A stretch of 64,000 bases of DNA from Vulcanimicrobiota bacterium (GCA_963795855.1 CAWCIZ010000001.1:64001-128000), one strand, 5' to 3'. Shown: positions 11,027-26,120, counted from the stretch's first letter. The notes: generated from the letters alone by a model not told the origin. Translations and numbers: made by a program.

Positions 11027-11766
11027 TCGCAGTTATTGCACTTTCGAACGTCAGCAAATCATACGAATCGCCACCGCTCTTGGTTGTACGCGAGTTTTCA
11101 CTAACGATTGATGACGGGGAGTTTCTCTGTTTGGTAGGCCCGTCTGGGTGCGGCAAGTCCACCGTTCTCAAGATGATTGCGGGCATAGAACAGCCGACGA
11201 GCGGTACGGTCACTAAACCGGCGCACGTGGGTATGGTGTTTCAATCGTATGCACTTTTTCCGTGGATGACCGCTGAGGAGAACATCGAGTTTGCCGCACG
11301 CATGCAGAACATTCCAGAACGCGAAGCTAGGCAGCGAACGTCGCGGTATCTGGCCATGGTACACCTGGAAGCGTTCGCGAAGAAATACCCGAGGGAACTC
11401 TCCGGCGGTCAGCGGCAGCGCGTGGGCATCGCGCGAGCACTCGCGGTGGATTCAAAGGTGCTGTTGATGGACGAGCCGTTTGCTGCGCTCGATCCGGTTA
11501 TCACGGATGAGTTGCATGCGGATCTGCTGCTGATCTGGCAAAGTACGCACAAGACGATCGTGATGGTCTCGCACCACTTCGACGAAGCGGTAGCGTTGGC
11601 CGATCGTATCGCCGTAATGCGCGACGGGAGATTGGAGCGCATTGTGTCGGTTGCCCTTCCGAGGCCGCGCAATGAAGAGGATGTGGCGTTCTTGCAGCAC
11701 GTCAAAGAAATTCGCCGGTGTCTGGGCTCCTTTCCGAGTCTAGCGCCGGATGCCGTGAGGAGCTGA
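10981..11766 (+). CDS. ABC transporter ATP-binding protein (NitT/TauT type); start uncertain
   Basis: [23 protein letters not shown]. Confidence 0.92.
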
Positions 11767-11768
11767 CA

Positions 11769-14133
11769 ATGCTAACAACGCAATCGCCGGTCGGAGAACT
11801 TCAGATTCTCGATGCATATTGGCGCGCAGCCAATTACTTGAGCGTTGGGCAGATCTATCTGCTCGATAACCCACTGTTACGCGAACCGCTGCGTCTCGAG
11901 CACATCAAACCGCGGCTGCTGGGGCATTGGGGCACCTCGCCGGGGCTGAATCTTGTCTACGCACACATGGACCGTGTCATCAAGCGCGAGAATCTGAATG
12001 CGATCTTCATTGCGGGTCCTGGCCACGGTGGGCCAGCCGTCGTTGCAAACGCGTACTTGGAAGGCACGTACAGCGAGAAGTATCCACGCATCACCCAAGA
12101 CGAGGATGGAATGCGCGCGCTTTTCCGGCAGTTCTCATTTCCCGGCGGCATCCCGAGCCACGCCTCGCCCGATGCGCCCGGTTCGATTCACGAGGGCGGC
12201 GAGCTGGGATACAGCTTGCTGCACGCGTACGGCGCGGTGTTCGATAACCCCGAACTCATCGCGTGTTGCGTCGTAGGGGACGGCGAAGCGGAGACCGGTG
12301 CACTCGCCACGAGTGGCATAGCAACAAGTTTTTGAATCCCTCTCGTGATGGCGCCGTGCTGCCGGTTTTGCATCTGAACGGATACAAGATCGCTGGCCCA
12401 ACGGTCCTTGCGCGCATTGAAGACTCCGAACTCATTGCACTGTTGCGAGGCTACGGTTACGAGCCGGCCATAGTCGCCGGTGATGAGCCGCAAGCGGTGC
12501 ACGAGTCATTTGCGAGGACGCTGGACGAGGCGTTGGATCGCATCCATGAAATACAATCAACGGCGCGAGCGTCGGGATTCCAGAAACGGTCCGCGTGGCC
12601 TATGATCGTGCTGCGAACGCCGAAGGGCTGGACGGGTCCCAAAATAGTCGACGGCGTCCAAGTCGAGGGCACGTTTCGCGCGCATCAAGTGCCGCTTGCC
12701 GACTTCGATACGAAGCCGGCTCACCTGCGCATGCTCGAAGAGTGGATGCACTCGTACCGTCCTGAAGAGCTGTTCGACGAATCGGGCAAACTGCGCGAAG
12801 TTATAGCCGCTGCCGCACCGTGCGGCACCAGTCGCATGAGTGCCAACCCAAACGCCAATGGCGGGGAAGTACTCAGGCGACTCGTCGTGCCGGATTTCCG
12901 CAGCTATGCGCTCGACGTCGCTTCGCCGGGGACAGTGATGCACGAGAGCATGCGCACGGCGGGGAGCTCCTGCGCGATGTATTACGGCCAAAATCCTGAT
13001 TGTTTTCGGCTCTTTGCGCCAGACGAAGCGGCCTCGAATCGCTTAAATGCCGTATTTGAAGTGGCAGAGCGGTGTTCGACGGCGACCGTATTGCCCACCG
13101 ACGATCATGTGTCCGCCAAGGGGCGCGTTATGGAGATTCTGAGCGAACATTGCTGCGAAGGCTGGCTTGAGGGCTATCTGCTCACCGGACGGTACGGCGT
13201 GTTCACGTCGTACGAGGCGTTCATCCATATTGTTGATTCAATGTTCAATCAGCACGCAAAGTGGCTTGCGTCATCAAAACGCATCCCTTGGCGACGCCCC
13301 ATCGCGTCCCTGAACTATCTCCTCAGTTCGCATGTCTGGCGCCAGGATCACAACGGCTTCACACATCAGGATCCCGGCTTTTTGGATGTGGTCGTGAACA
13401 AAGGCGCCGACGTGGTGCGCGTTTACCTTCCCCCGGATGCCAATACACTGCTATCAGTCCTCGATCACTCCCTGCGCAGCATGAACTACATCAACGTCAT
13501 CATTGCGGGAAAGCAGCCGGAGTTGCAGTGGCTCGACATGGATGCCGCCGTCAAGCATTGCACGAGGGCGTGGGCATCTGGACCTGGGCGAGCAGCGACG
13601 AAGGAACCGAGCCGGACGTGGTGCTCGCGTGTGCGGGCGACGTGCCGACCCTGGAAACGCTTGCGGCCGCGGATTTCCTGCGAACTGCACTTCCAGAAAT
13701 GCGCGTTCGCATCGTCAACGTCGTCGATTTGATGACGCTCCAGCCGAATACGGAGCATCCGCACGGGCTTTCCGACAGGGAATTCGACTCCATATTTACG
13801 GCGGACAAGCCGATCGTGTTCGCTTTTCACGGCTATCCTTGGCTTATTCACCGCCTAACGTATCGCCGAACGAATCATTGCAATTTGCACGTGCGCGGAT
13901 ATAAGGAGCAGGGCACAACCACGACACCCTTCGACATGGTCGTACTCAACGAGATGGATCGCTTCCATCTCGCCGGAGATGCGATCGATCGCGTACCGCG
14001 CCTGACTGATCGCGCGGGGCATGTCAAGCAGCTGATCCGCGACAGATTGGTCGAGCACCGGCTGTACATTGAGAAGTACGGCCAAGACATGCCGGACATT
14101 CGCGACTGGCGATGGACGCAGGCAAAGCAGTGA
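11769..14133 (+). CDS. xfp: Phosphoketolase (frameshifts ~12310 and ~13565)
   Basis: [53 protein letters not shown] spread over three frames. Confidence 0.93.
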
Positions 14134-15170
14134 ACATCCTCAGCCTGAACTTAGGTTCGTCCTCGTTGAAGTATGCCGTCCATGCCGTAACCGACAGTGG
14201 GTTGGAATGCAGGCTCGCGCGCAACTTGGTATCGTCGTCGCAGCCGCAGGATGCGGCACGAGCGACATGCGAAGCCATTACCGATGCCGTGCAACAGGCC
14301 GGCGTGGTGAGTGCCGTCGGGCATCGCGTGGTTTTCGGCGGCGAGGATGACGCACCGACACGCATTACGCCCGAGTTGATCGAGCGCCTTGAAGGGCTCC
14401 AGTCGCTGGATCCGTTGCATGCGCCCGGCGCACTTGCCGTCATCCGGGAAGCGCTGACGGCTTTGCCGGCCGCCGCGCAGATAGCATGCTTCGATACGGC
14501 GTTCTTTCGCGATCTGCCCAAAACAGGCCGCACACTCCCGCTTCCTATGGACGATCCGCTGCTCCGGCGCTACGGCTTCCACGGGCTTTCATATGAGCAC
14601 GTGTGTCGCGTAGTTGGCGAGAAGGTGAGACCACGTACGGCCGTCGCGCACCTCGGTAATGGCGCGAGCGCCGCAGCGCTTTTAAACGGTCGCCCTATAG
14701 CGACGACGATGGGGTTTAGCCCCCTGGGCGGTATGATCATGTCCACGCGGACCGGTGACATCGATCCGGGCGCGCTTTTGTACCTGCTCGAGCGCGCAAA
14801 CATGGATAAGCATACGCTGCGCGATCTCCTCGAAAATGCCAGCGGTCTGCGGGCCCTTTCCGGCGATGAGAGCGACTTGCGCAAACTGTGCGAGCGACAG
14901 GACGAGGGCGCCCAATTCGCAGTCGAGATGTTCGTACGTTCTGCCGCGAGGGCCATCGCAGGATTAGCCATCGAGCTGGTCGGGCTTGATATGCTGATTT
15001 TTACGGGTGGAATTGGCGAACACAATGCGGCGGTACGTAACGCCATACTCGCACGTTTGGCGTTCCTCAATCCGAACCTGACGGTGGAGATCATCGAATC
15101 CGATGAAAATGCGTCTATAGCGCATAACGTCGCCCGCATGGTCGATTCCCGCATGCGAACATCGAAATAG
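14130..15170 (+). CDS. ackA: Acetate/propionate kinase
   Basis: [41 protein letters not shown]. Confidence 0.93.
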
Positions 15171-15194: not shown

Positions 15195-15918
15195 ATGAGC
15201 AGTCGTATCCCACGCAGCACACCGGGACCGAGACACGTCGAACGGCACTTTACTGCTTCCGAAACGGTGCGCGATATCGTCATTTGGCATGTCGGATGGC
15301 CTAACGGTGCCGTTTGCGCTTGCAGCAGGCATTTCCGGCGCAATAGCGGCTTCGCACGTTGTCGTCACCGCAGGTATTGCGGAGCTGGCAGCCGGCGGCA
15401 TCTCGATGGGGCTGGGCGGATATCTGGCGGCGCGCACCGATATCGAACACTACAAGAGCGAGCAGCAACGCGAGCAGCGTGAAGTGGACGAAATACCAGC
15501 GGAAGAACGCATGGAAGTGCAAAGCATTCTTCGCACGTATGGGTTAGGTCAAGAAGATGCCGCGCGCGTCGCGAGCGCTCTTACTTCAGATCGCGAACGC
15601 TGGATCAACTTTATGATGCGCTTCGAGCTTGGTTTAGAAGAACCGGATCGGCGCAGAGCGCCGCTGAGCGCGCTCACGATTGGCGGTTCGTACGTTATCG
15701 GCGGCATAGTGCCGTTGATACCGTATATGCTCGTTCAAAGATCCAATCAAGGCTTGTATATTTCCGCGATCGTCACGCTGATTGCCCTGTTTATATTTGG
15801 TGCTGTCAAGGGGTGGTTTACAGGCGTTCCGATTTTCCGTAGCGCTTTGCAAACGGTGGTCATCGGCGGTGTGGCGGCGGCCGTCGCCTTTCTGCTGGCC
15901 AGATTAGTTGCCGGATAG
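15195..15918 (+). CDS. VIT1/CCC1 iron/manganese transporter (frameshift ~15285)
   Basis: ERHFTASETVRDIVI|GMSDGLTVPFALAAG, FMMRFELGLE. Confidence 0.9.
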
Positions 15919-15940: not shown

Positions 15941-16188
15941 TTAGCGATTTATGGTGTTGTAAATCCAAGCGAATACGCCGCCGGCCAGTGAAGCGAGAAC
16001 CGCTCCGCCCAACCACCATGCGATCCCCATGCCGTAGCCGCGACCCATCATTCCGGCGTAACCGCCCATCATGTTGCCCATTCCCACCATGGGAAAGGCG
16101 ATGATGAACACAAAATCGACTCAGTGCATCCAGCGGCGAGTGCACATGCTGCGGGATTGAGTCGCTGGGTTCGCGTCAGTTCTGTCAT
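15941..16188 (-). CDS. Small Met/Gly-rich membrane protein (DUF5676-like; frameshift ~16115)
   Basis: GAGGA RBS, MTELTRTQRLNPAACALAAG | FIIAFPMVGMGNMMGGYAGMMGRG...GGVFAWIYN. Confidence 0.5.
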
Positions 16189-16670
16189 TGTTACATCCTC
16201 TGAAATTCAGACTTGCTTCGTCGCCGCGACCCATCGGCATAGCGGTGGCCATCAGCATCGTACTCAGGCGATTCAACCCGCTAGGCGATAGGCGAACGGC
16301 CAACACAAGGACCCAAAGCAAGAACGCTCCGATGTTGATGCGCTCGTAGATAGCGATGCCGGGCGTGGACAAGTTTGCGGCCAGGCGTGCGCCTTGCGCT
16401 CCGGTCAGCGCTCCGAACAAAACGATCACGCCGAACGTCGCAACAGTGTAGTACGTGAAGCGCTTTCCTAGTGCAGCGGTTGCAACACCCATCGCGATAA
16501 GCGTCAATGTCAGCCACACCGCCGTCCAGAGGATGTGGAGTGTATCGGTCAGTCCTATCGGCGTTCCGCGCATGTGCATCGGCGGCCAAAACGACCCATA
16601 GATGGCGGATGTCGCGAGCAGCGCGGCCGTGACGCGTAATACCCGTTTCGGTCCAATATCTTTTGTGCCA
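16121..16670 (-). pseudogene. DUF998-like membrane protein, C-terminal remnant
   Basis: WPPMHMRG..TDTLH..ERINIGAFLLW; there is no room for the N-terminal half before the upstream gene. Confidence 0.5.
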
Positions 16671-16695: not shown

Positions 16696-17877
16696 TTATT
16701 GGGTCCCGATAGGTGTGGTCCACCAGAACAGCCAGCGCCATGTCGGTCTACCGTTCGGCGCAGTGGAATTTCCGCCGAGTCCTGCTTCGACATATCCATG
16801 CAAATAGCGCGCATGCGGCACGTTGAACGCGAAGTCCACATTTTGGGCATGCGCGAGATTGCCGAGGCCATCATCGGTGAATTCGTCACGGAAACCAAGA
16901 ACGGCGCCGCGATTAAAAAGCGATTCGTAGAGTTCTGCGGTAACTGCTTTGCTGCTTGCCGCGGGCAATTGGTTGCCATTTGCATCCAAGCCGGGATTCG
17001 GGTCGTGCGCCGCCTGGTAGATTGCGAAGACGCCCGGAATGCCGTTCGGCTGCGGATCGCGTTGCAGATATGCCGCAATCGAAGTGTAGTGGTCGGCGGC
17101 GCCGGTGGACACGATGTAGCTGCCGCTGCTGCCGTAAAGTCCTAACTCCGGCAGTTGCGGCCGGTCGGCGTGGGCACTGGCGAGCTTCCATTGAAACGTC
17201 TTGTCGGTACCCGGCGTCGTCGCAAAGTCCGCGGCGCCGATCATACCGTTGCTGCTCAGCAGCCAGCCCGCTTCGGCGTCCAGCGCGCCATGCACGTACG
17301 CAAGTTTGCTTCCCCAGCGGTTTGCATCAAGTTGGTAAACGTGCTCACCGACGGTGATCTCCGGCGTAGCGAATGCGGAGATGTCGAAAAACTGGCTGAA
17401 CGGCGAAGGCGCCGGCGCTTCATACTTGCCGATGAACAGGTGGCCGTCGCGATGGAATAGGTTGTTGTAGGTGACCCACGCGGTGTCGAGCGTGCCGCCC
17501 GCATCGTCGTTTTGCAGTAGCCACTGCTGTACGTGGAAGGTCCAATCCGGAGCGAGATATCCGGCGCCATGCAGCGCCAGATTACCGAACGAATTCTTGT
17601 AGCCCGGTGAAATGTTGCTGACGCCGCCGGTGCTGTCGCCATTGACTTGCTCGCCGATCCAGATCGGAACCACCGATTTGATGACGTCGTGATTCAACGA
17701 CGAATAGCCGGTCCTTTGGACGTATCGGCCGTACGCATTGAGCGCGGGTACGAGCGTGTGGCAGGTGCTGCAGCTCACACCGTAGGCTTTCGCGAAGGGA
17801 GGCATGGCGTATGCGCCCGCTTCAACGGCCAGCGCAAACCCGGCGCATGCCGCCGCACGCCATGACGAGGCGCACAA
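16696..17877 (-). CDS. Cyc2-like fused monoheme cytochrome c / outer-membrane beta-barrel
   Basis: Signal peptide, then PPFAKAYGVSCSTCHTLVPALNAYGRYVQRTGY; amphipathic beta strands; aromatic C-terminal strand. Confidence 0.75.
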   Translation of the reverse strand: MCASSWRAAACAGFALAVEAGAYAMPPFAKAYGVSCSTCHTLVPALNAYGRYVQRTGYSSLNHDVIKSVVPIWIGEQVNGDSTGGVSNISPGYKNSFGNLALHGAGYLAPDWTFHVQQWLLQNDDAGGTLDTAWVTYNNLFHRDGHLFIGKYEAPAPSPFSQFFDISAFATPEITVGEHVYQLDANRWGSKLAYVHGALDAEAGWLLSSNGMIGAADFATTPGTDKTFQWKLASAHADRPQLPELGLYGSSGSYIVSTGAADHYTSIAAYLQRDPQPNGIPGVFAIYQAAHDPNPGLDANGNQLPAASSKAVTAELYESLFNRGAVLGFRDEFTDDGLGNLAHAQNVDFAFNVPHARYLHGYVEAGLGGNSTAPNGRPTWRWLFWWTTPIGTQ

Positions 17878-18237
17878 TCACTTTTGCACCTTGATTGTAA
17901 GCGCCATGTTCGGATGGCCGGCGCCGCAAATAACCGAGCAGTGCACAATGTACGTTCCCGCCTTTTTCGGCGTGAATGTAACGGTCACGAACTTGTTCGG
18001 CATGATCGTCGTGTCGGGAATGCCCAGTTCGTCGGACTTGATCCCGTGCACGCCTTCGCTGGACGTTAACCGCAGCGTGGTCGGTTCGCTGAGCGGAACC
18101 GTAATGGTATCCGGCGTGAATTTCCAATTCGACGCGACGATGTCGATGCTTGGATGCGCGGTAATCGAGAGCGGAATGATCGCGGCGCACACCAGGAGCA
18201 GTGCGGCCGAAGGCAGGGCGAATCCGGTGATTTTCAT
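17878..18237 (-). CDS. Secreted cupredoxin with CuA-like motif
   Basis: EGVHG ... CSVICGAGHPNM. Confidence 0.88.
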   Translation of the reverse strand: MKITGFALPSAALLLVCAAIIPLSITAHPSIDIVASNWKFTPDTITVPLSEPTTLRLTSSEGVHGIKSDELGIPDTTIMPNKFVTVTFTPKKAGTYIVHCSVICGAGHPNMALTIKVQK

Positions 18238-18363
18238 GTCGCAATTGTAAAGCTTACATGAGGCCAATCGGAGAACGGCCTAGGCCAACTCGGAGAATAG
18301 GCTGCAAAAACAAGAGCAGAGCGGTGGTTCACCGCCCTGCTGTGTCCCTCGCAGAAACTTGCT

Positions 18364-18729
18364 TTAGACGGCTTTTATCGTAATCATCATCTTGCCATGA
18401 TCGGGGCCGCAAGGGATTCCGCACTGTACGGTATACGTTCCGGGTTTTGCGGCCGTAAAGCTTACCATCTTGGTCGATCCTGGCGTGACCATTGTGTTTG
18501 GAATGCCAAGTTCGGCGGATTCGATGCTGTGTACACCGCTCTGCCCGACCAATTTAAGCTCGACGGGTTGTCCCGCATGAACAGTAATTTGTGATGGGCT
18601 GAACAAGGACGAGGCTGAGGCGGTGATGGTTACGACTTGCACAGGAGCGGCGAACGCGCCAAGCGATGCGCCGGCGCTCAGAGAGAGTCCGAATACGCAG
18701 GCTGAAAAAACAGAGATAAAACGCTTCAT
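18364..18729 (-). CDS. Secreted cupredoxin with CuA-like motif (paralogue)
   Basis: SGVHS ... CGIPCGPDHGKM. Confidence 0.88.
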   Translation of the reverse strand: MKRFISVFSACVFGLSLSAGASLGAFAAPVQVVTITASASSLFSPSQITVHAGQPVELKLVGQSGVHSIESAELGIPNTMVTPGSTKMVSFTAAKPGTYTVQCGIPCGPDHGKMMITIKAV

Positions 18730-18808
18730 GAACAGCATGATAGCAGCGGTGGGCGAACTCAGCAGGAACGATGTGAGAACAGGTTGAGGCCACGACTTTT
18801 GTCGGAAC

Positions 18809-18846
18809 AAAAAATCAAGAGCCACCGGCAAGGCGACTCTTGATTT
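18809..18846 (-). terminator. Intrinsic terminator after cytochrome c gene
   Basis: aaatcaagag...ctcttgattt stem with a U tract on the minus strand. Confidence 0.6.
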
Positions 18847-18982
18847 GTTTCCGCGGTCTGGTTCTACAATTGGCCTGATAGCAGGCCCTAACTTCAGAGA
18901 GCCCCGCGCCGCTCTTTTTCTGATGTCTGAACCGTATGCCCAGCGTATCAATTCGATGAGAACGCGTCGAGAAAAGACTGCG

Positions 18983-19714
18983 TCACTTCAGAGATTCGAC
19001 GTAAGCGGCGACATCGCGGACGTCTTGCGAGTTGATCGTGGAGGGATAGAGCTTGGGCATCGGCGGCAGTGGATTCTCGATCCACGTTACGGCTTGCGCG
19101 AAGTTTTTTCGCGACGCCTCACCGATAAGGCGCGGTCCCATTCCGCCTTGGCCTTGCGCACCATGGCATGAGGAGCAATTTTGCGCGAAGATCGCTTTCC
19201 CGTGAGCCGGGTCCGGCGCGGCGTTCGACGCTGTTTGGGAAGAGGCCGTCGCCGATCCGGTTGATGCTGCAACCTGCAACGGTGGGCTGACTCCGAAACC
19301 CCAAGCGGCGAGAAACGCCATCGTCCACAAGCTCAATGCCATCGCCGTGCCGACGCCGTACGCATACTGCTGCCCCGCATAAGCCGTTAGAAAACCGAGC
19401 AGCGCGAGGCCGAGGTGTTCGAATACGTGCGCTGCGGGCAGTTTCTCGAGCGGCGAATATTCCGAGGGCCACATCAGCAGCATCGCGAGCATCGGCGCAA
19501 CGATGCTGAGCACGAGCCATGTTGCGCGTTTGGTGAACGCCGCGGGGGACCGGCGCGCGATCAACAGTCCGGAGAGCGCCGCACCGATCAAAATGATCGC
19601 ATGCAGCAAGTGGTGGATCCGCACCGGGAATTCCACGCCTGTTCGATACGCGGGCGCGAGTGCGAAGAGAACAGTTAGAGCGAGAACGACGTAGCCGAGT
19701 GTGCGCGATTTCAT
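18983..19714 (-). CDS. His-rich membrane domain (CtaG-like) fused to class I cytochrome c
   Basis: HHLLH and HVFEH in TM region; C-terminal CSSCH...MPK. Confidence 0.85.
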   Translation of the reverse strand: MKSRTLGYVVLALTVLFALAPAYRTGVEFPVRIHHLLHAIILIGAALSGLLIARRSPAAFTKRATWLVLSIVAPMLAMLLMWPSEYSPLEKLPAAHVFEHLGLALLGFLTAYAGQQYAYGVGTAMALSLWTMAFLAAWGFGVSPPLQVAASTGSATASSQTASNAAPDPAHGKAIFAQNCSSCHGAQGQGGMGPRLIGEASRKNFAQAVTWIENPLPPMPKLYPSTINSQDVRDVAAYVESLK

Positions 19715-21207
19715 CCCGCTGCCTCTGCCTTGGCAAGCCGCGCTAACCGCGCCGCTTCAATCCCGGCGATGATGAGGCCGGCCAGCAGAATCAGCGCACC
19801 GATCGTCGCGATACCCGCGTACTGCGGTCCGACGCCAGGTTCGACCGCGTACCTTCGAGGCACGCCGCTTGCTCCAGCGATGTAGAAAGAGATCAGAAAC
19901 AATGCGGCCCCGCCGAAGATCGTCGCGCCAGTAAGCCAGCGCATGAAGAGCGACGACGTCTGGCCGCTGCGTTGCTCCAGCGTGACAAACGCCCAGCCGA
20001 TGATGAACAGCAGTACGCCCTGCAGCAGATACGTATGGAAGTGCCCGGGCACCCAGAGCGTGTTGTGCAAATCCAAGTTTATCGGGATCGTGGCGTCGAG
20101 AACGGCCGCGGTGCCGCCGACGACCCAGCCGATCATGCCGGCGTACAAGAACATCGATCCCAGGCTCCAGCGCAACCCCGAGCGGTGTACCAGCATCGTA
20201 CCGGAGAAAACCGTCACGACGACGACCGGAATGGCTGCCAGATACGATGCGATTTCTCCGACGAACTGCACGGTTTCCGCTTGCGCGAAGTCCATGTACA
20301 AATGATGGAAGTACGCGATGATGACGAAGAGCAGCGTTCCCCACCACGCGACGACCAAAGGCTTCGACGTGTGATATTCGCGTTTAGTGCATAGCGGCAA
20401 AGCAACGTACACGCCGGCGACTGCTATATACATGGTTAGATTCGCGAAGGTATGTCCGAACTGATAGATCAGATTCTTTGCCCAGAGTGGATCGATCGCG
20501 ACGGACGGATCGATCCAGTGCACGAGCAGCCCGACGCCGGCGGAAAGCCCGAAGGTGCTGCCGATGATCCCGTCAATCGCCGTAATCGCAGCGGCGAACA
20601 TCTGCGGCGGCGGTTCAACGTGCGTCTGCGCAAACGCGCGCGTGTTGAAGACGTAATCAATGCCGAGCATCCCCGTTATGCCGCCGTAGCGGTTGAGCAA
20701 TGCTCCGAGAATCTGAGCGCACCAAATCATGAAGCCGATCATGACGAGCGCATTGCCGATGAGCCACACGCCGGTCGCCCAACTGGGCCAATACGTGCCG
20801 ACGAAAGGCAGCGGATAGAGCATGGTCCAGAGCGAGCCGTACTTACCGGGAAAGACGCTGATGATCACGCACAGCGCTCCGGCGAGGAAGAATCCGTACG
20901 CCAGATACGCGATGCGAGGGTCGATGACTGCTTCGCGCCGTACCAAGTACCACAGCGTTCCCAGCCCAGCGATAGCCATCGCAGTGATCATGCCGATGCC
21001 GTGTAGACTCAGCATCGCGTAAAACCAGCCGGGATCGTACGTTATCCAGCCGGCTTGCTCTGCGCGCATCGTGATGCCGATGAGCAGCATTATGAAAAAA
21101 ATTGCGAGCCCCGTAGTGATGTAGGTCCACATCACGGTACGCGCACTGCGCAACTCCGCGCTGGTCGGCGCTACGTTAGCGCCGATGTCAATTGTGATCG
21201 CGCTCAT
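19711..21207 (-). CDS. Heme-copper oxidoreductase subunit I, sNOR-like nitric oxide reductase
   Basis: SLHG, FGHTFAN (Asn at the cross-link Tyr position), YFHHLY, GHFH. Confidence 0.82.
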   Translation of the reverse strand: MSAITIDIGANVAPTSAELRSARTVMWTYITTGLAIFFIMLLIGITMRAEQAGWITYDPGWFYAMLSLHGIGMITAMAIAGLGTLWYLVRREAVIDPRIAYLAYGFFLAGALCVIISVFPGKYGSLWTMLYPLPFVGTYWPSWATGVWLIGNALVMIGFMIWCAQILGALLNRYGGITGMLGIDYVFNTRAFAQTHVEPPPQMFAAAITAIDGIIGSTFGLSAGVGLLVHWIDPSVAIDPLWAKNLIYQFGHTFANLTMYIAVAGVYVALPLCTKREYHTSKPLVVAWWGTLLFVIIAYFHHLYMDFAQAETVQFVGEIASYLAAIPVVVVTVFSGTMLVHRSGLRWSLGSMFLYAGMIGWVVGGTAAVLDATIPINLDLHNTLWVPGHFHTYLLQGVLLFIIGWAFVTLEQRSGQTSSLFMRWLTGATIFGGAALFLISFYIAGASGVPRRYAVEPGVGPQYAGIATIGALILLAGLIIAGIEAARLARLAKAEAAG

Positions 21208-21713
21208 CGAACGTCAAAACCTCCTTGCATTGCGGCGTGCGCTATACCGCAGTATTCTAGGCACCGAACCGTGTAGTGGCCGCGGACGTGGAACAGAAAA
21301 GGCAGGTGGTTGACGTAGTCCGGCATCGCCTGCACCTGTCCAACCAATCTGCCGTTGGGATCGTAGATGGCAAAGCCGTGGTTGACATCTCGCGAGGTTA
21401 CGTCGAACACCACGGGTCTGTCCGCCGGGATGGCTGCCGGCAGCATGAAACTATACTGCTGCGCGATCACCCGATAATGCTGCCCGAGTGTTTGCGCACT
21501 ACCGTACGGAAAGTGCGGAATCGTGAAGATAAATACCGCAATGGCGGCGGCCATCACGGTAATGAACCAATACCTTCGAATGGCGTAGCCCTGCGCTGAA
21601 ACGACGTCCTGTGGTACGGGCGTGCGCGAACCGTAGTTTGCGAGAAACACCATCAGCGCAATAGCCACCGCTGCCACGATCAAAAAGACCTCAAGAACAA
21701 GCAGACCTGACAA
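21204..21713 (-). CDS. CuA-containing subunit II
   Basis: DVNHGF ... CLEYCGIAHAAM, two N-terminal TMs. Confidence 0.9.
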   Translation of the reverse strand: MSGLLVLEVFLIVAAVAIALMVFLANYGSRTPVPQDVVSAQGYAIRRYWFITVMAAAIAVFIFTIPHFPYGSAQTLGQHYRVIAQQYSFMLPAAIPADRPVVFDVTSRDVNHGFAIYDPNGRLVGQVQAMPDYVNHLPFLFHVRGHYTVRCLEYCGIAHAAMQGGFDVR

Positions 21714-21728
21714 CAGTTCCCTCCTCCG

Positions 21729-22823
21729 TTATCCTGCGACGCGGGCGGCGTTCTCGTGCAGTATGGCTGGCACATACGCGCACGTCGGCTCTTCCGCAAA
21801 CGCGTCGCCGGCCATCGTATAGGCGCGCGACCGTGAACCGCCGCAGAGCTGCCGAAACTCGCAGGCGCCGCATTTGCCGCCGAAAGTCTCGGGCGAGCGT
21901 AGCCGCCGCATCTCGGGGTCTCCCCGATACATCTCAAGTAAGTTGTCCGTTCGGACGTTCCCTACCGGATTGGGAAGGAAACCGCTGGGGCAAATTTCGC
22001 CGGTGTGCGAGATAAAGACGAACCCCTTGCCGTCGCCGATTGCCGGAAACTCCATCCACGGCTGGCGCGCGTGCGCCGGCCGTTCGAGCGCAGGGGCAGC
22101 CGCCTTTCGTTGCGCCACATATCGCCGAAAGTTTGGCGCCTCCGTCGTCTTTACAGCGAACCGCGACAGCCGCGAAATGCGGTACAGCACCCGAAACGCT
22201 TCCTCAGTCTCATTTGCATCCAAAACTTGGTCGGTTTCGCGCGCCCCACCGGAATCAGAAAGAACGCACTCCAGAGGACGGCATCGAGCCGCTCGACCAG
22301 CGCGGCAATCTGTATCAAGTCATGCGCGTTGAAGCGTGACACCGTGGTGTTGATCTGCAGTTCCATGCCGAGGTCGCGTACTGCCTGCGCTGCTTCTAGC
22401 GTGCGTTTGAAGGAACCGTTGACTCCGCGGAAGCGATCGTGCATCTCCGCTGTGGCGGCGTCGATGCTGAAGGAAATCCGTTTGCAGCCGGCCGCGACCG
22501 AGTCGCTCCAATGCCGCTCGCGTGAGGCGTCCCGTGGCGCTCGGGGAAGCGGCAACGCGCAAGCTGCGATAGGTCGCGTACTCAGCGATCTTATAGATGT
22601 CATCGCGCATCAGCGGATCGCCACCAGTTAAGACGAAAATCGGCTTGCCACATTGGCGCACGGCGTCGACCAGGCAAAATGCTTCTTGGGTAGTAAGTTC
22701 CGCCGGATTGCGATGGGCAATCGCTTCGGCGCGGCAATGCCGGCACGCAAGCGCGCACGCGCGGGTCATTTCCCAAATGACAATGCGCGGCGCATCAGAG
22801 TAAGTTTGAGAAAACAGCGCCAT
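21729..22823 (-). CDS. Radical SAM/SPASM protein, AhbC/AhbD/NirJ-like (frameshifts ~22500 and ~22225)
   Basis: WEMTRACALACRHC, LTGGDPL, FISHTGEICPSGFLP, CGACEFRQLCGGSRSRAY. Confidence 0.85.
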
Positions 22824-22897: not shown

Positions 22898-23552
22898 TTA
22901 TACCGCCCGCGTCCGATAGAACAAGAGGCTTAGTAACGCCGTGACGATCCAGAACACTCCGAGGTAGCCGACGATGCCGATGTTCCTTAGCTGCATGCTG
23001 CCCGTTGCGACACCGCTCAAACCGGCTAACGCGAGTATGCCGCTAAGGATCATCAGGAAACGGATCCAAGCCGCGAGCCGATTCCCGCTAAAGGCTGGAG
23101 CCGCGAACAGCATCGAAAGCGCGAAAAAGAAGTCCCAAGCTGAGGACATCGAGAGAATATGCAACTGATGGCCATTTGAAAGAAAAGAACAGTTGAAGCG
23201 ACGATTGCTCAAGAAAGACGGGCTGGCGGCCCAGGGTGAGGATAACGAAGTGCACGCTGCTCGTTATCGCGGCGACCACGCTCATGAAGACAATGGAAGC
23301 CAAACTCAGCGCTTTAGCGTTCAAAGGAGCCCAGGCATACACCGCAATCATAAGCGTAACCATGGCCGGCATCATGATAATGATGAGAACCTCGAGCACT
23401 GAGAACATTGGATCGCCGATGGGCTGCTGCGGAGACTTAAGAGATGCGAAACCTACCCCGAGCGTGATCGCATAGGCCACCTCGAGAGTCGCAACGCTCG
23501 CCGCCGAGAAAATTCCGAGCCGGCGCGCTGTTGAAGTAAATTCAGGACCCAC
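22898..23552 (-). CDS. Hypothetical membrane protein (frameshift ~23150)
   Basis: Two consecutive hydrophobic ORFs join (FKWPSVAY | AWDFFFALS). Confidence 0.6.
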
Positions 23553-25424: not shown

Positions 25425-26120
25425 GTGGCCAAACGTGTGCTCGTAGTTGAAGACGAAGCCGAGATCCGGGAGACGCTAGAGGGCTATCTCCGAAAGGATT
25501 CGTTCGATGCCGTAGGGGCCGGAACGGTGGCAGCGGCGTTGGCGGAGATAGAACAGCATCTGCCTGATCTGGTCCTTCTTGACATTGGATTGCCCGATGG
25601 CACCGGATTTGACGTGCTGCGGAAAACCAACGAACTGCGCCGCGTCCCGACGATCGTTCTCACGACGCGCAGCGACGAAGTCGATCGCATCGTGGGTCTA
25701 GAGTTAGGCGCGGATGATTACATCGGCAAACCATTTTCGCCGCGCGAAGTGATGGCGCGCATTCGCGCCCTGTTTCGGCGGCTAGACGCGGTTGCCGCCA
25801 CGGCGCAACTGCCGGGAGCGGTGCACCGCATTCGCGACCTCGAAATCAATGAGGCGGCACACGAGGTCCGCGTGCAGGGGAAAGCCGTCGACGTGCGTCC
25901 CGCAGAGTTCCGCATTTTGGCCCTGCTGGCAAGACACGCCGGCCAAGTGCTCTCGCGTCCGCAGATGCTGGATCTGCTCCACGATGATGGGAGCATCTTT
26001 GAGCGCACGCTGGATCGTCATATCAATCATCTGCGCCACAAAATCGAGTCAGATCCGGAGAAGCCGACCTATCTCGTGACGGTGTACGGCGTGGGCTACA
26101 AGATTGATCCGTGCACATAA
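25425..26120 (+). CDS. OmpR/PhoB-family response regulator
   Basis: VLVVEDE, LELGADDYIGKPF, RTLDRHINHLRHK, VYGVGYK. Confidence 0.95.
   Translation: MAKRVLVVEDEAEIRETLEGYLRKDSFDAVGAGTVAAALAEIEQHLPDLVLLDIGLPDGTGFDVLRKTNELRRVPTIVLTTRSDEVDRIVGLELGADDYIGKPFSPREVMARIRALFRRLDAVAATAQLPGAVHRIRDLEINEAAHEVRVQGKAVDVRPAEFRILALLARHAGQVLSRPQMLDLLHDDGSIFERTLDRHINHLRHKIESDPEKPTYLVTVYGVGYKIDPCT

Follow-up and report, generated by a model that had tools for sequence, protein, structure and literature searches.

A Cyc2-like cytochrome-porin with free CuA cupredoxins beside an sNOR-type haem-copper enzyme in Eremiobacterota: a candidate electron-uptake module

A run of seven genes was analysed in a 64,000-nucleotide stretch of DNA (the window; Vulcanimicrobiota bacterium, GCA_963795855.1 CAWCIZ010000001.1:64001-128000), in which a Cyc2-like cytochrome-porin and two secreted CuA-type cupredoxins (cupA and cupB) lie next to the operon of a haem-copper enzyme of the sNOR type, a proposed nitric oxide (NO) reductase. 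The locus consists of two modules, each conserved separately in the phylum Eremiobacterota and here joined. Module A holds a radical SAM gene, CuA subunit II, haem-copper subunit I and a membrane cytochrome c, which together would form an sNOR-type enzyme reducing NO to nitrous oxide (N2O). Module B holds cupA, translationally coupled to the porin, with cupB added here, and would be an outer-membrane conduit for electron uptake. The cupA-porin pair is a tight unit whose commonest partner is a ba3-type O2 reductase; the sNOR-type operon is a recurrent, rarer neighbour. We tentatively read module B as a conduit feeding haem-copper terminal enzymes, here possibly an NO reductase, and hold this at somewhat short of even. 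The module looks more like a general route for electron intake than like a chain dedicated to passing electrons from iron to NO. Peat, tundra and mine soils harbour Eremiobacterota in abundance, and to our knowledge the physiology of this little-known phylum has been little tested.

Two separately conserved modules at one locus

Positions are window coordinates; G000 denotes the source genome of the window, other G numbers denote genomes, and L numbers denote the loci of relatives. The source is a soil bacterium of the phylum Eremiobacterota, and G000 comprises 3.06 Mb in 6 contigs with an estimated completeness of 86%. Where homologues of the porin and of subunit I bear a name, they belong to Candidatus Eremiobacterota (Baltobacteraceae, Vulcanimicrobiaceae, Rubrimentiphilum, Tumulicola and Tyrphobacter), and a few are labelled Dormibacteraeota. 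The subunit I protein P0134, labelled Candidatus Dormibacteraeota, is identical to that at L004:2795-4264 in G120, a genome from the family to which the window belongs, which points to conflicting labels or binning, or else to a very recent transfer.

Transcribed on the minus strand from 22823 to 16696, the genes run in the order radical SAM enzyme, subunit II, subunit I, membrane cytochrome c, cupB, cupA and porin (Table 1). All seven stand at the positions given by an earlier reading of the DNA alone (the original prediction) and are backed by a family match or by homologues, with one correction: six are intact frames, and the radical SAM gene is three frames as assembled. Subunit II overlaps subunit I by 4 bases, subunit I overlaps the cytochrome c gene by 4 bases, and the porin start codon stands immediately after the cupA stop. 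The two larger intergenic gaps are occupied by terminator-like hairpins close to the positions predicted (18315 and 18810), and the locus is most likely divided into three transcription units, namely radical SAM-II-I-cytochrome c, cupB, and cupA-porin. Terminator-like sites in the whole region numbered 10, against 8.0 ± 2.5 in shuffled sequences, which is no excess over chance.

Conservation was measured in 201 genomes sampled across the phylum, using the porin, subunit I and the ba3-type subunit I found beside relatives' porins as queries. The sNOR-type enzyme was counted as present at 55% identity or more. The porin was found in 93 genomes (two unpublished ones, G128 and G178, included), the ba3-type oxidase in 72 and the sNOR-type enzyme in 26. 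The ba3-type enzyme is firmly identified by its match to the Thermus thermophilus ba3 oxidase (E 1e-116) and by its GHPLVY motif. Porin and ba3-type oxidase occurred together in 64 genomes, within 5 kb of each other in 25 and within 15 kb in 31. Porin and sNOR-type enzyme occurred together in 22; of these, 4 have them within 5 kb, 9 within 15 kb and 10 on different contigs. The four closest cases are G000 (1.8 kb), G131 (3.1 kb), G065 (2.3 kb, with a degraded enzyme) and G081 (1.1 kb), where the porin is a 29%-identical paralogue divergent in direction to the enzyme. The nine genomes linked within 15 kb span seven genera, and the seven pairs with an ortholog-level porin span six; the porins near the sNOR-type enzyme belong to different paralogues.

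The internal order of both modules is conserved. Subunit II, subunit I and the membrane cytochrome c follow one another in all 13 relatives' loci. For the porin, a non-random set of 29 relatives' loci was picked from the hit lists, and 27 of these have cupA immediately upstream of the porin. Two loci depart from this: L014 has a gap of 1.1 kb, and in L020 the porin is followed by a cytochrome c domain and a cupredoxin. Ten sister-family loci have the order ba3II-ba3I-cupA-porin; the genes run in one direction in 8 of them and are divergent in the other 2. This array is often flanked by an OmpR-type regulator, a small open reading frame (ORF) and a Usp gene.

The Cyc2-like porin and its CuA cupredoxins

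On profile and motif evidence, the porin is a divergent Cyc2-like protein. Its single CXXCH (CSTCH, residues 36-40) is preceded by a 24-residue hydrophobic segment ending in AYA, which was judged by eye to be a signal peptide, and is followed by TLV and PAL, the latter giving the PxL motif with P44 and L46 invariant in 25 sequences. The pattern A.P.FA...-3-CxxCH-3-PxL is kept in 111 of 120 porin homologues, and the spacing between motif and CXXCH equals that in the canonical-looking protein P0381. The single CXXCH, the PxL motif, a length of at least 365 residues and 16 strands agree with the description of Cyc2 in the accessible part of PMC8406198.

No Pfam or NCBIfam family matched the porin. 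It has 573 homologues, and those named are almost all Eremiobacterota. A profile built from 25 family members gathered 1325 representatives at E ≤0.001 among 1.8 billion clusters, and matched canonical-motif Cyc2-like proteins with E values of 1e-8 to 1e-13, the match lying chiefly in the N-terminal third. Distant full-length matches bear the canonical Cyc2 N-terminus, for example IPAFARKYGM.CSACH and MPSFARQTGMECSACH. When the porin family was aligned with four canonical-motif proteins by hhalign, a probability of 99.4% and an E value of 7e-22 were obtained over 228 columns extending into the barrel. An AlphaFold2 model of the porin has 16 strands (pLDDT 74.8), with a low-confidence haem domain as expected without haem, and its best Foldseek matches are 16-strand general porins (E 1e-10). 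The proposal that the protein is a homologue of Cyc2-type cytochrome-porins was thus upheld.

Other searches were less informative. The porin profile found no sequence in the PDB at E up to 10, and a plasmid collection searched with the porin gave no match. Ten clusters among the distant matches bore no name beyond 'hypothetical protein', apart from one case of 'mono/diheme cytochrome c family protein'. The nearest ESM Atlas clusters came from Vulcanimicrobiota, Acidobacteriota and Pseudomonadota, one with Porin_O_P on 20% of its members, and serve as leads only. A complex prediction of porin residues 24-393 with haem and cupA residues 28-119 scored 0.00 in two runs and was used neither way.

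In some family members one or two class I cytochrome c domains are joined to the C-terminus of the porin or come directly after it (P0071, P0105, P0317; L020:7879-9318), and the fused domain shares 53% identity with the c domain of the window's membrane cytochrome. G000 also carries a second, more distant Cyc2-like ORF (C3:256315-257520, AIPLFAQRY...CGACH). Two type-1-like cupredoxin ORFs and an SCO-like thiol protein lie upstream of it, and an OmpR/histidine kinase pair lies downstream.

The original prediction had called the two small secreted proteins cupredoxins, which is borne out by their PF13473 and PF00116 matches; their copper site requires a more exact description. Both have the full binuclear CuA ligand set with the spacing H-(about 35)-C-x3-C-x3-H-x2-M, and no type-1 site. 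H64, C100, C104, H108 and M111 are invariant in all 22 aligned sequences (cupA, cupB and relatives). The cupredoxin profile found as its best PDB match the soluble CuA domain of T. thermophilus ba3 subunit II, over the whole domain (E 2e-16 to 1e-13). By these motifs, cupA and cupB are predicted to be free secreted CuA proteins, unlike the type-1 blue copper proteins of the rus system. All the aligned proteins carry a signal peptide, after which mature cupA begins HPSIDIV and is about 93 residues long; its orthologues all begin with this sequence or a near variant. cupB is 36% identical to cupA and is flanked by the two terminator-like hairpins.

A scan of genome contigs with canonical-motif queries returned 80 loci (L023-L102), mostly from metagenome-assembled genomes (MAGs) of Acidobacteriota, with no classical iron oxidiser among them. 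A CuA-motif ORF lies within 4 kb in 44 of the 80, so the combination of a porin with a copper protein and a haem-copper oxidase is a widespread one. Those CuA-motif ORFs that were printed are mostly 216-315 residues long, the size of a subunit II. They are often preceded by an ORF of about 250 residues with a copper-site-like motif, KC.[VI]H.WM.

The sNOR-type operon and neighbouring genes

Subunit I is remote from the solved A- and B-family oxidases (E 1e-10). In its motif GHTFAN an Asn takes the position of the cross-link Tyr; the protein retains the HH and HFH ligands. Residues N243, Y247, Y254, E255 and T319 (Bacillus azotoformans numbering) are given for sNOR in Dataset S1 of PMC11214002, a source used in part. 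Subunit I has Tyr at N+4 and N+11, and the Thr of its VVTVF aligns with AVTAF of Ruegeria pomeroyi. Among the best 120 homologues, N, Y and Y stand at H+4, H+8 and H+15 in 118 of the 119 that bear the motif.

The nearest named relatives, at 35-36% identity, are encoded on the R. pomeroyi megaplasmid and on a Thermomicrobium roseum replicon. The R. pomeroyi cluster reads Rrf2-II-I-SCO-orf-formate/nitrite transporter-cytochrome c, and that of T. roseum reads II-I-nitrite transporter-assembly protein. In a 17-row tree, built without eNOR, gNOR, bNOR and nNOR references, the subunit I clade joins these two enzymes (91/96), apart from ba3, NorB-like and CcoN proteins. The substitution of Asn for Tyr, the three retained His and the grouping with enzymes in an sNOR context agree with the predicted sNOR-like terminal reductase. 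Because the tyrosine needed for O2 reduction is missing, the enzyme of module A most likely reduces NO to N2O.

The third gene of the operon encodes a membrane cytochrome c with about 5 N-terminal hydrophobic helices, counted by eye, and a C-terminal class I cytochrome c (CSSCH). The motifs HHLxH, MLLMxPSxY, HxxEH and YAGQxY of the membrane domain (19235-19714) are invariant in 9 of 9 orthologues, and this domain could be metal- or haem-binding. Residues 1-160 matched no Pfam family at E up to 1. Neither of two possible identities found support: the 'orf1' of sNOR clusters (BLASTP against the R. pomeroyi orf, E 1.3) and a CtaG-like protein (E 0.024-0.84 by BLASTP with the assembly protein of T. 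roseum; hhalign probability 6.8%). Two His motifs of the domain do align with this CtaG-like assembly protein, without significance.

The radical SAM gene matches TIGR04053 at positions 3-106, 106-195 and 199-366 in its three ORFs (132, 105 and 170 bits), each piece falling below the 395-bit cut-off for an intact protein, and its cluster motif CxxxCxxC is present as CALACRHC. The first and last pieces are in the same frame, which implies that a +1 and a -1 shift flank about 265 bases. These breaks are likely to be assembly indel errors, because the same-genus homologue is intact (376 residues, L017:7386-8516) and several genes of G000 are split. In the window the split genes include a phosphoketolase (11718-14133, three ORFs) and a membrane ORF (22898-23552); elsewhere, 2 of the 3 other PF00115 loci are broken into three or four pieces (G000:C1:256406-257701; G000:C3:82771-84092). 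The DNA alignment with the same-genus gene (75% identity) was too noisy for placement of single-base indels. Indel errors may also account for the completeness estimate of 86% despite only 6 contigs.

The probable role of the radical SAM enzyme is to aid the supply of haem when O2 is lacking. Its gene stands upstream of II-I-cytochrome c in only L004 and L017 of the 13 relatives' loci. A second TIGR04053-like gene in G120 (L004:11354-16939) lies between a porin-adjacent PNPOx-like gene and a run of haem genes (uroporphyrinogen decarboxylase, ferrochelatase and an amine-oxidase-type, HemY-like gene), a neighbourhood that fits a role in haem synthesis without O2.

Table 1. Features of the locus and an associated regulator, in window coordinates.
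Feature	Position	Strand	Basis or detail
TIGR04053-family (AhbD/NirJ-like) radical SAM/SPASM gene	21729..22823	-	three ORFs: 22823-22320, 22603-22151, 22223-21729
CuA subunit II, 169 residues, two N-terminal hydrophobic helices, CLEYCGIAHAAM	21204..21713	-	PF00116, TIGR02866
Haem-copper subunit I, sNOR type, 498 residues	19711..21207	-	PF00115, 161 bits
Membrane cytochrome c, 243 residues	18983..19714	-	PF13442, PF00034 at residues 168-243
Terminator-like hairpin 3' of the cytochrome c gene	18812..18846	-	15-pair stem, T-rich tail
cupB, second secreted CuA-type cupredoxin	18364..18738 (start ATG 18738 or 18729; ORF to 18951)	-	PF13473, PF00116
Terminator-like hairpin between cupB and cupA	18315..18341	-	12-pair stem, T-rich tail
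cupA, secreted stand-alone CuA-type cupredoxin	17878..18237 (ORF to 18267)	-	PF13473, PF00116
Cyc2-like fused monohaem cytochrome-porin, 393 residues	16696..17877	-	AMPPFAKAY-3-CSTCH-3-PAL, then 16-strand barrel
OmpR-family response regulator	25425..26120	+	tblastn of the L001 regulator matches G000:C1:89437-90105 (window 25437-26105)

The OmpR-family response regulator shares 60% identity with the one that flanks ba3 and cupA-porin in relatives. A regulator neighbours the module in L001, L002, L109, L111, L114 and L118, and control of the module by the one in the window is possible. Beyond the porin end of the cluster lie a DUF998-like membrane gene (16121-16579, -) and a gene of the VIT1 family of iron/manganese transporters (15289-15918, +), 0.8 kb from the porin; in L013 (G131) another VIT1-family gene stands some 5 kb away from the porin. 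Genes for phosphoketolase and acetate kinase accompany these respiratory genes, in the window at 11718-15170, again beyond the porin end, and in L001 and L002 (G061 and G043) directly upstream of sNOR subunit II. In same-genus G160, a NorB-like haem-copper protein (WVEATWE) is divergent from the sNOR operon; after it come a small ORF and a beta-propeller that weakly matches cytochrome d1 and lactonase types (L017:8884-12236). This is maybe another N-oxide enzyme set, and it is absent from the window.

Electron route, alternative readings and known systems

In the preferred reading, a dissolved reductant, with Fe(II) as the best guess, would enter the 16-strand pore and reduce the single porin haem at its periplasmic end. 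From there a soluble CuA protein would ferry the electron to an inner-membrane terminal enzyme of the haem-copper type. The acceptor in most relatives would be the ba3-type O2 reductase of the same operon, and in G000 it may plausibly be the sNOR-type enzyme, reached via cytochrome c or CuA, beside other oxidases encoded elsewhere; the tethered cytochrome c would be the likely electron entry of that enzyme. The reading was built on observed gene content, metal-ligand motifs, fold, homology and synteny statistics, from which the electron-transfer steps, the substrate and the NO reductase activity are all predicted. Placement of the pair in ba3 operons, together with the porin-cytochrome c fusions, argues for delivery of electrons to haem-copper enzymes. 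Fe(II) is the best-supported donor because of the Cyc2 homology, though the motif differs, and the VIT1-family gene near the porin is a weak hint towards iron. The sNOR-type enzyme is a plausible acceptor because it is adjacent, because an extra cupredoxin lies between the modules and because no ba3-type oxidase was found. In G000, an 86% complete genome, the searches found no ba3-type oxidase, no RuBisCO, no NirS and no NirK above the cut-off.

Several observations weigh against this reading. At the phylum level, 71 of the 93 genomes with the porin have no sNOR-type enzyme, and 22 have neither it nor ba3 by these queries (G128 and G178 among them), which suggests that module B is independent of either enzyme. 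In G160 the sNOR operon and cupA-porin are on different contigs; its subunit I is 90% identical to that of the window and its porin 54-57% identical, and its sNOR operon is followed by Usp and a two-component system and by nothing like module B. The original prediction was staked beforehand on the porin/cupredoxin and NOR genes being linked in other genomes, and with this same-genus separation and the 4 and 9 of 22 genomes linked within 5 and 15 kb, the genes proved in part to be unlinked, which weakens that prediction. Neighbourhoods shared by the modules also contain Usp, PAS kinases, regulators and haem genes, so linkage may reflect common regulation and not direct electron transfer. The hairpins between module A, cupB and cupA-porin make co-transcription unlikely, and since neither NirK nor NirS was found, an internal source of NO is not evident.

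Further points concern the proteins themselves. The motif AXPXFAR[Q/K][T/Y] given for Cyc2 in PMC8406198 (in part) is replaced in the porin by AMPPFAKAY, and the strict form of FAR[Q/K][T/Y] occurs in 0 of the 111 pattern-bearing homologues. The residue following FA is K in 56 of these, Q in 44, E in 8, and L, A and R in one each; the next is A or G in all 111 and never Q or K. Fe(II) oxidation by this porin clade is a prediction only. In subunit I the E255 position holds Val, and homologues have V (110), T (4), Y (3) or A (2) and no E. The same position is Glu in R. pomeroyi, where N, Y, Y and E are all present, and Ala in T. roseum. A Pfam and NCBIfam scan found no SCO/SenC gene in the cluster, which therefore departs from the norSY-senC-orf1 context. 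The activity of sNOR itself was proposed from a bNOR-like active site and is unmeasured, according to the accessible part of PMC11214002.

The two modules may instead be independent residents of a respiratory and stress island, their adjacency a rearrangement with no mechanistic meaning. The sNOR-type enzyme would then detoxify NO, fed from the quinol-cytochrome c chain, and the pair would serve O2 respiration via other oxidases, or another purpose. Most genomes have one module without the other, terminators stand between them, and G000 has three other PF00115 loci. Neighbourhoods are also rearranged among genera, with phosphoketolase, acetate kinase, Usp and regulators moving along. Set against this, in genomes of about 3 Mb the modules lie within 15 kb in 9 of 22, across seven genera and with different porin paralogues. 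Such proximity is far above random placement, though related genomes are non-independent samples, and we regard independence as rather unlikely.

The opposite alternative, close to the original prediction, joins the porin, both CuA cupredoxins, the membrane cytochrome c and the sNOR-type enzyme into one dedicated pathway from Fe(II) to NO. The NO may arise abiotically from nitrite and Fe(II), and the purpose would be detoxification or energy. Direct adjacency in G000, G131 and G065 (there with a degraded enzyme) speaks for it, as do the distant porin paralogue 1.1 kb from the enzyme in G081, the position of cupB between the modules and the sNOR-operon cytochrome c domain fused to porins elsewhere. 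With no ba3 found, the sNOR-type enzyme is moreover the sole CuA-bearing neighbour in G000. Adjacency within 5 kb is however confined to 4 of the 22 genomes with both, the modules are unlinked in the same genus, and the usual partner of the pair is ba3. The run is broken into three transcription units, the activity is unmeasured and no nitrite reductase was found in G000. The terminators, the patchy linkage and the missing NO-forming enzyme weigh against such a chain, which we consider unlikely. The same low standing is given to the fullest form of the general module, a plug-in cassette for extracellular electron uptake that evolution attached to a ba3 or an sNOR-type enzyme, and that in G000 would drive Fe(II)-dependent reduction of environmental or abiotic NO.

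It is very unlikely that the pair is no Fe(II) oxidase and serves Cu(I), Mn(II), reduced humics, outward electron export, copper homeostasis or redox sensing with the OmpR-type regulator: the departure from the published (Keffer) motif, the uncertain function of divergent Cyc2 homologues (PMC8406198, in part), the copper-rich proteins, the response regulator beside the module in many loci and the missing RuBisCO, hence no obvious iron lithoautotroph, would suit it, but the haem and PxL motifs are conserved, many genomes place the pair in a terminal-oxidase operon, a better fit to respiration than to metal export, and a VIT1-family gene lies 0.8 kb from the porin.

The general electron-intake module is retained as the preferred, tentative reading, and its parts have precedents in the lineage. 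A Cyc2-like gene was found by BLAST in a MAG of the UBA5184 family of Eremiobacterota (PMC8357290, in part), and Baltobacteraceae MAGs are predicted iron oxidisers (PMC13594681, in part). One sNOR is listed in genomes of Rubrimentiphilum, Cybelea, Tumulicola and Elarobacter, and two in SCRA01 (Dataset S6 of PMC11214002, in part). The view that such a module was undescribed in this lineage must accordingly be narrowed, as Cyc2-like genes and sNOR had already been reported; it stands for their adjacency and the CuA partner, on which no paper was found. Literature searches gave no Eremiobacterota paper with a cupredoxin (bioRxiv preprint supplements lay outside the search), no relevant paper combining Cyc2 with sNOR, no paper on a free CuA partner of Cyc2 as judged from listings, and nothing relevant for Eremiobacterota with nitric oxide reductase and iron oxidation. 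What is particular here is the free CuA carrier and its alternative attachment to an sNOR-type enzyme.

If the reading is right, Eremiobacterota would fuel respiration with electrons taken from Fe(II) in solution or from a comparable reductant, and some lineages would send them to NO reduction, which matters for the iron cycle and for the N2O that wet soils emit. These organisms, abundant as heterotrophs in peat and soil, would then be an unrecognised NO sink and N2O source at iron-rich redox boundaries. A strictly paired free CuA cupredoxin would be an unusual natural soluble purple-copper electron carrier, and cupA, with about 93 residues and an expected purple-copper spectrum, is an easy biochemical target. 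The four-gene array ba3II-ba3I-cupA-porin of relatives offers a compact system for examining the proposed route from Cyc2 to oxidase. For annotation, the porin clade fails the published Cyc2 motif filter, yet hidden Markov model tools may flag it as an iron oxidiser.

Four known systems bear comparison. With Cyc2 (Acidithiobacillus ferrooxidans Cyc2, Mariprofundus Cyc2PV-1 and Leptospirillum Cyt572; PMC8406198, in part) the porin shares a signal peptide, a single CXXCH, PxL, a length of at least 365 residues and 16 strands. The likeness extends to the A.P.FA..Y segment, which stands at an equal distance of three residues from the haem motif, and to the profile-profile homology; the defining FAR[Q/K][T/Y] is replaced by FA[K/Q/E]AY in the window clade.

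To the CuA domain of T. thermophilus ba3 (PDB 2CUA, 6PTY and others) the cupA family is matched over its full length and with the same H, C, C, H and M. cupA and cupB are stand-alone, secreted proteins with a cleavable signal peptide, unlike the anchored oxidase subunit.

The enzyme resembles sNOR (norSY-senC-orf1; PMC11214002, in part) in its CuA subunit II, the Asn at the Tyr position, the Tyr at +4 and +11 and the channel Thr. It also forms a clade with the R. pomeroyi and T. roseum enzymes, and sNOR is listed for Baltobacteraceae in that source. It differs in having Val for the conserved Glu and in lacking a SenC/SCO and a nitrite transporter gene. Its third gene fuses a five-helix membrane domain to cytochrome c, and in some genomes a TIGR04053 gene stands upstream.

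The rus operon of A. ferrooxidans has the order cyc2-cyc1-cup-coxBACD-rus. The predicted parallel in the list of parts holds, since an outer-membrane cytochrome-porin, periplasmic copper and haem carriers and a haem-copper terminal enzyme are encoded together by the same logic. The carrier here is a stand-alone binuclear CuA cupredoxin, in contrast to the type-1 rusticyanin of rus, and the cytochrome c is monohaem and membrane-anchored, in contrast to the dihaem cyc1. Three transcription units replace the one of a rus-type operon, and the terminal enzyme is of the sNOR type here and of the ba3 type in relatives, where rus has aa3.

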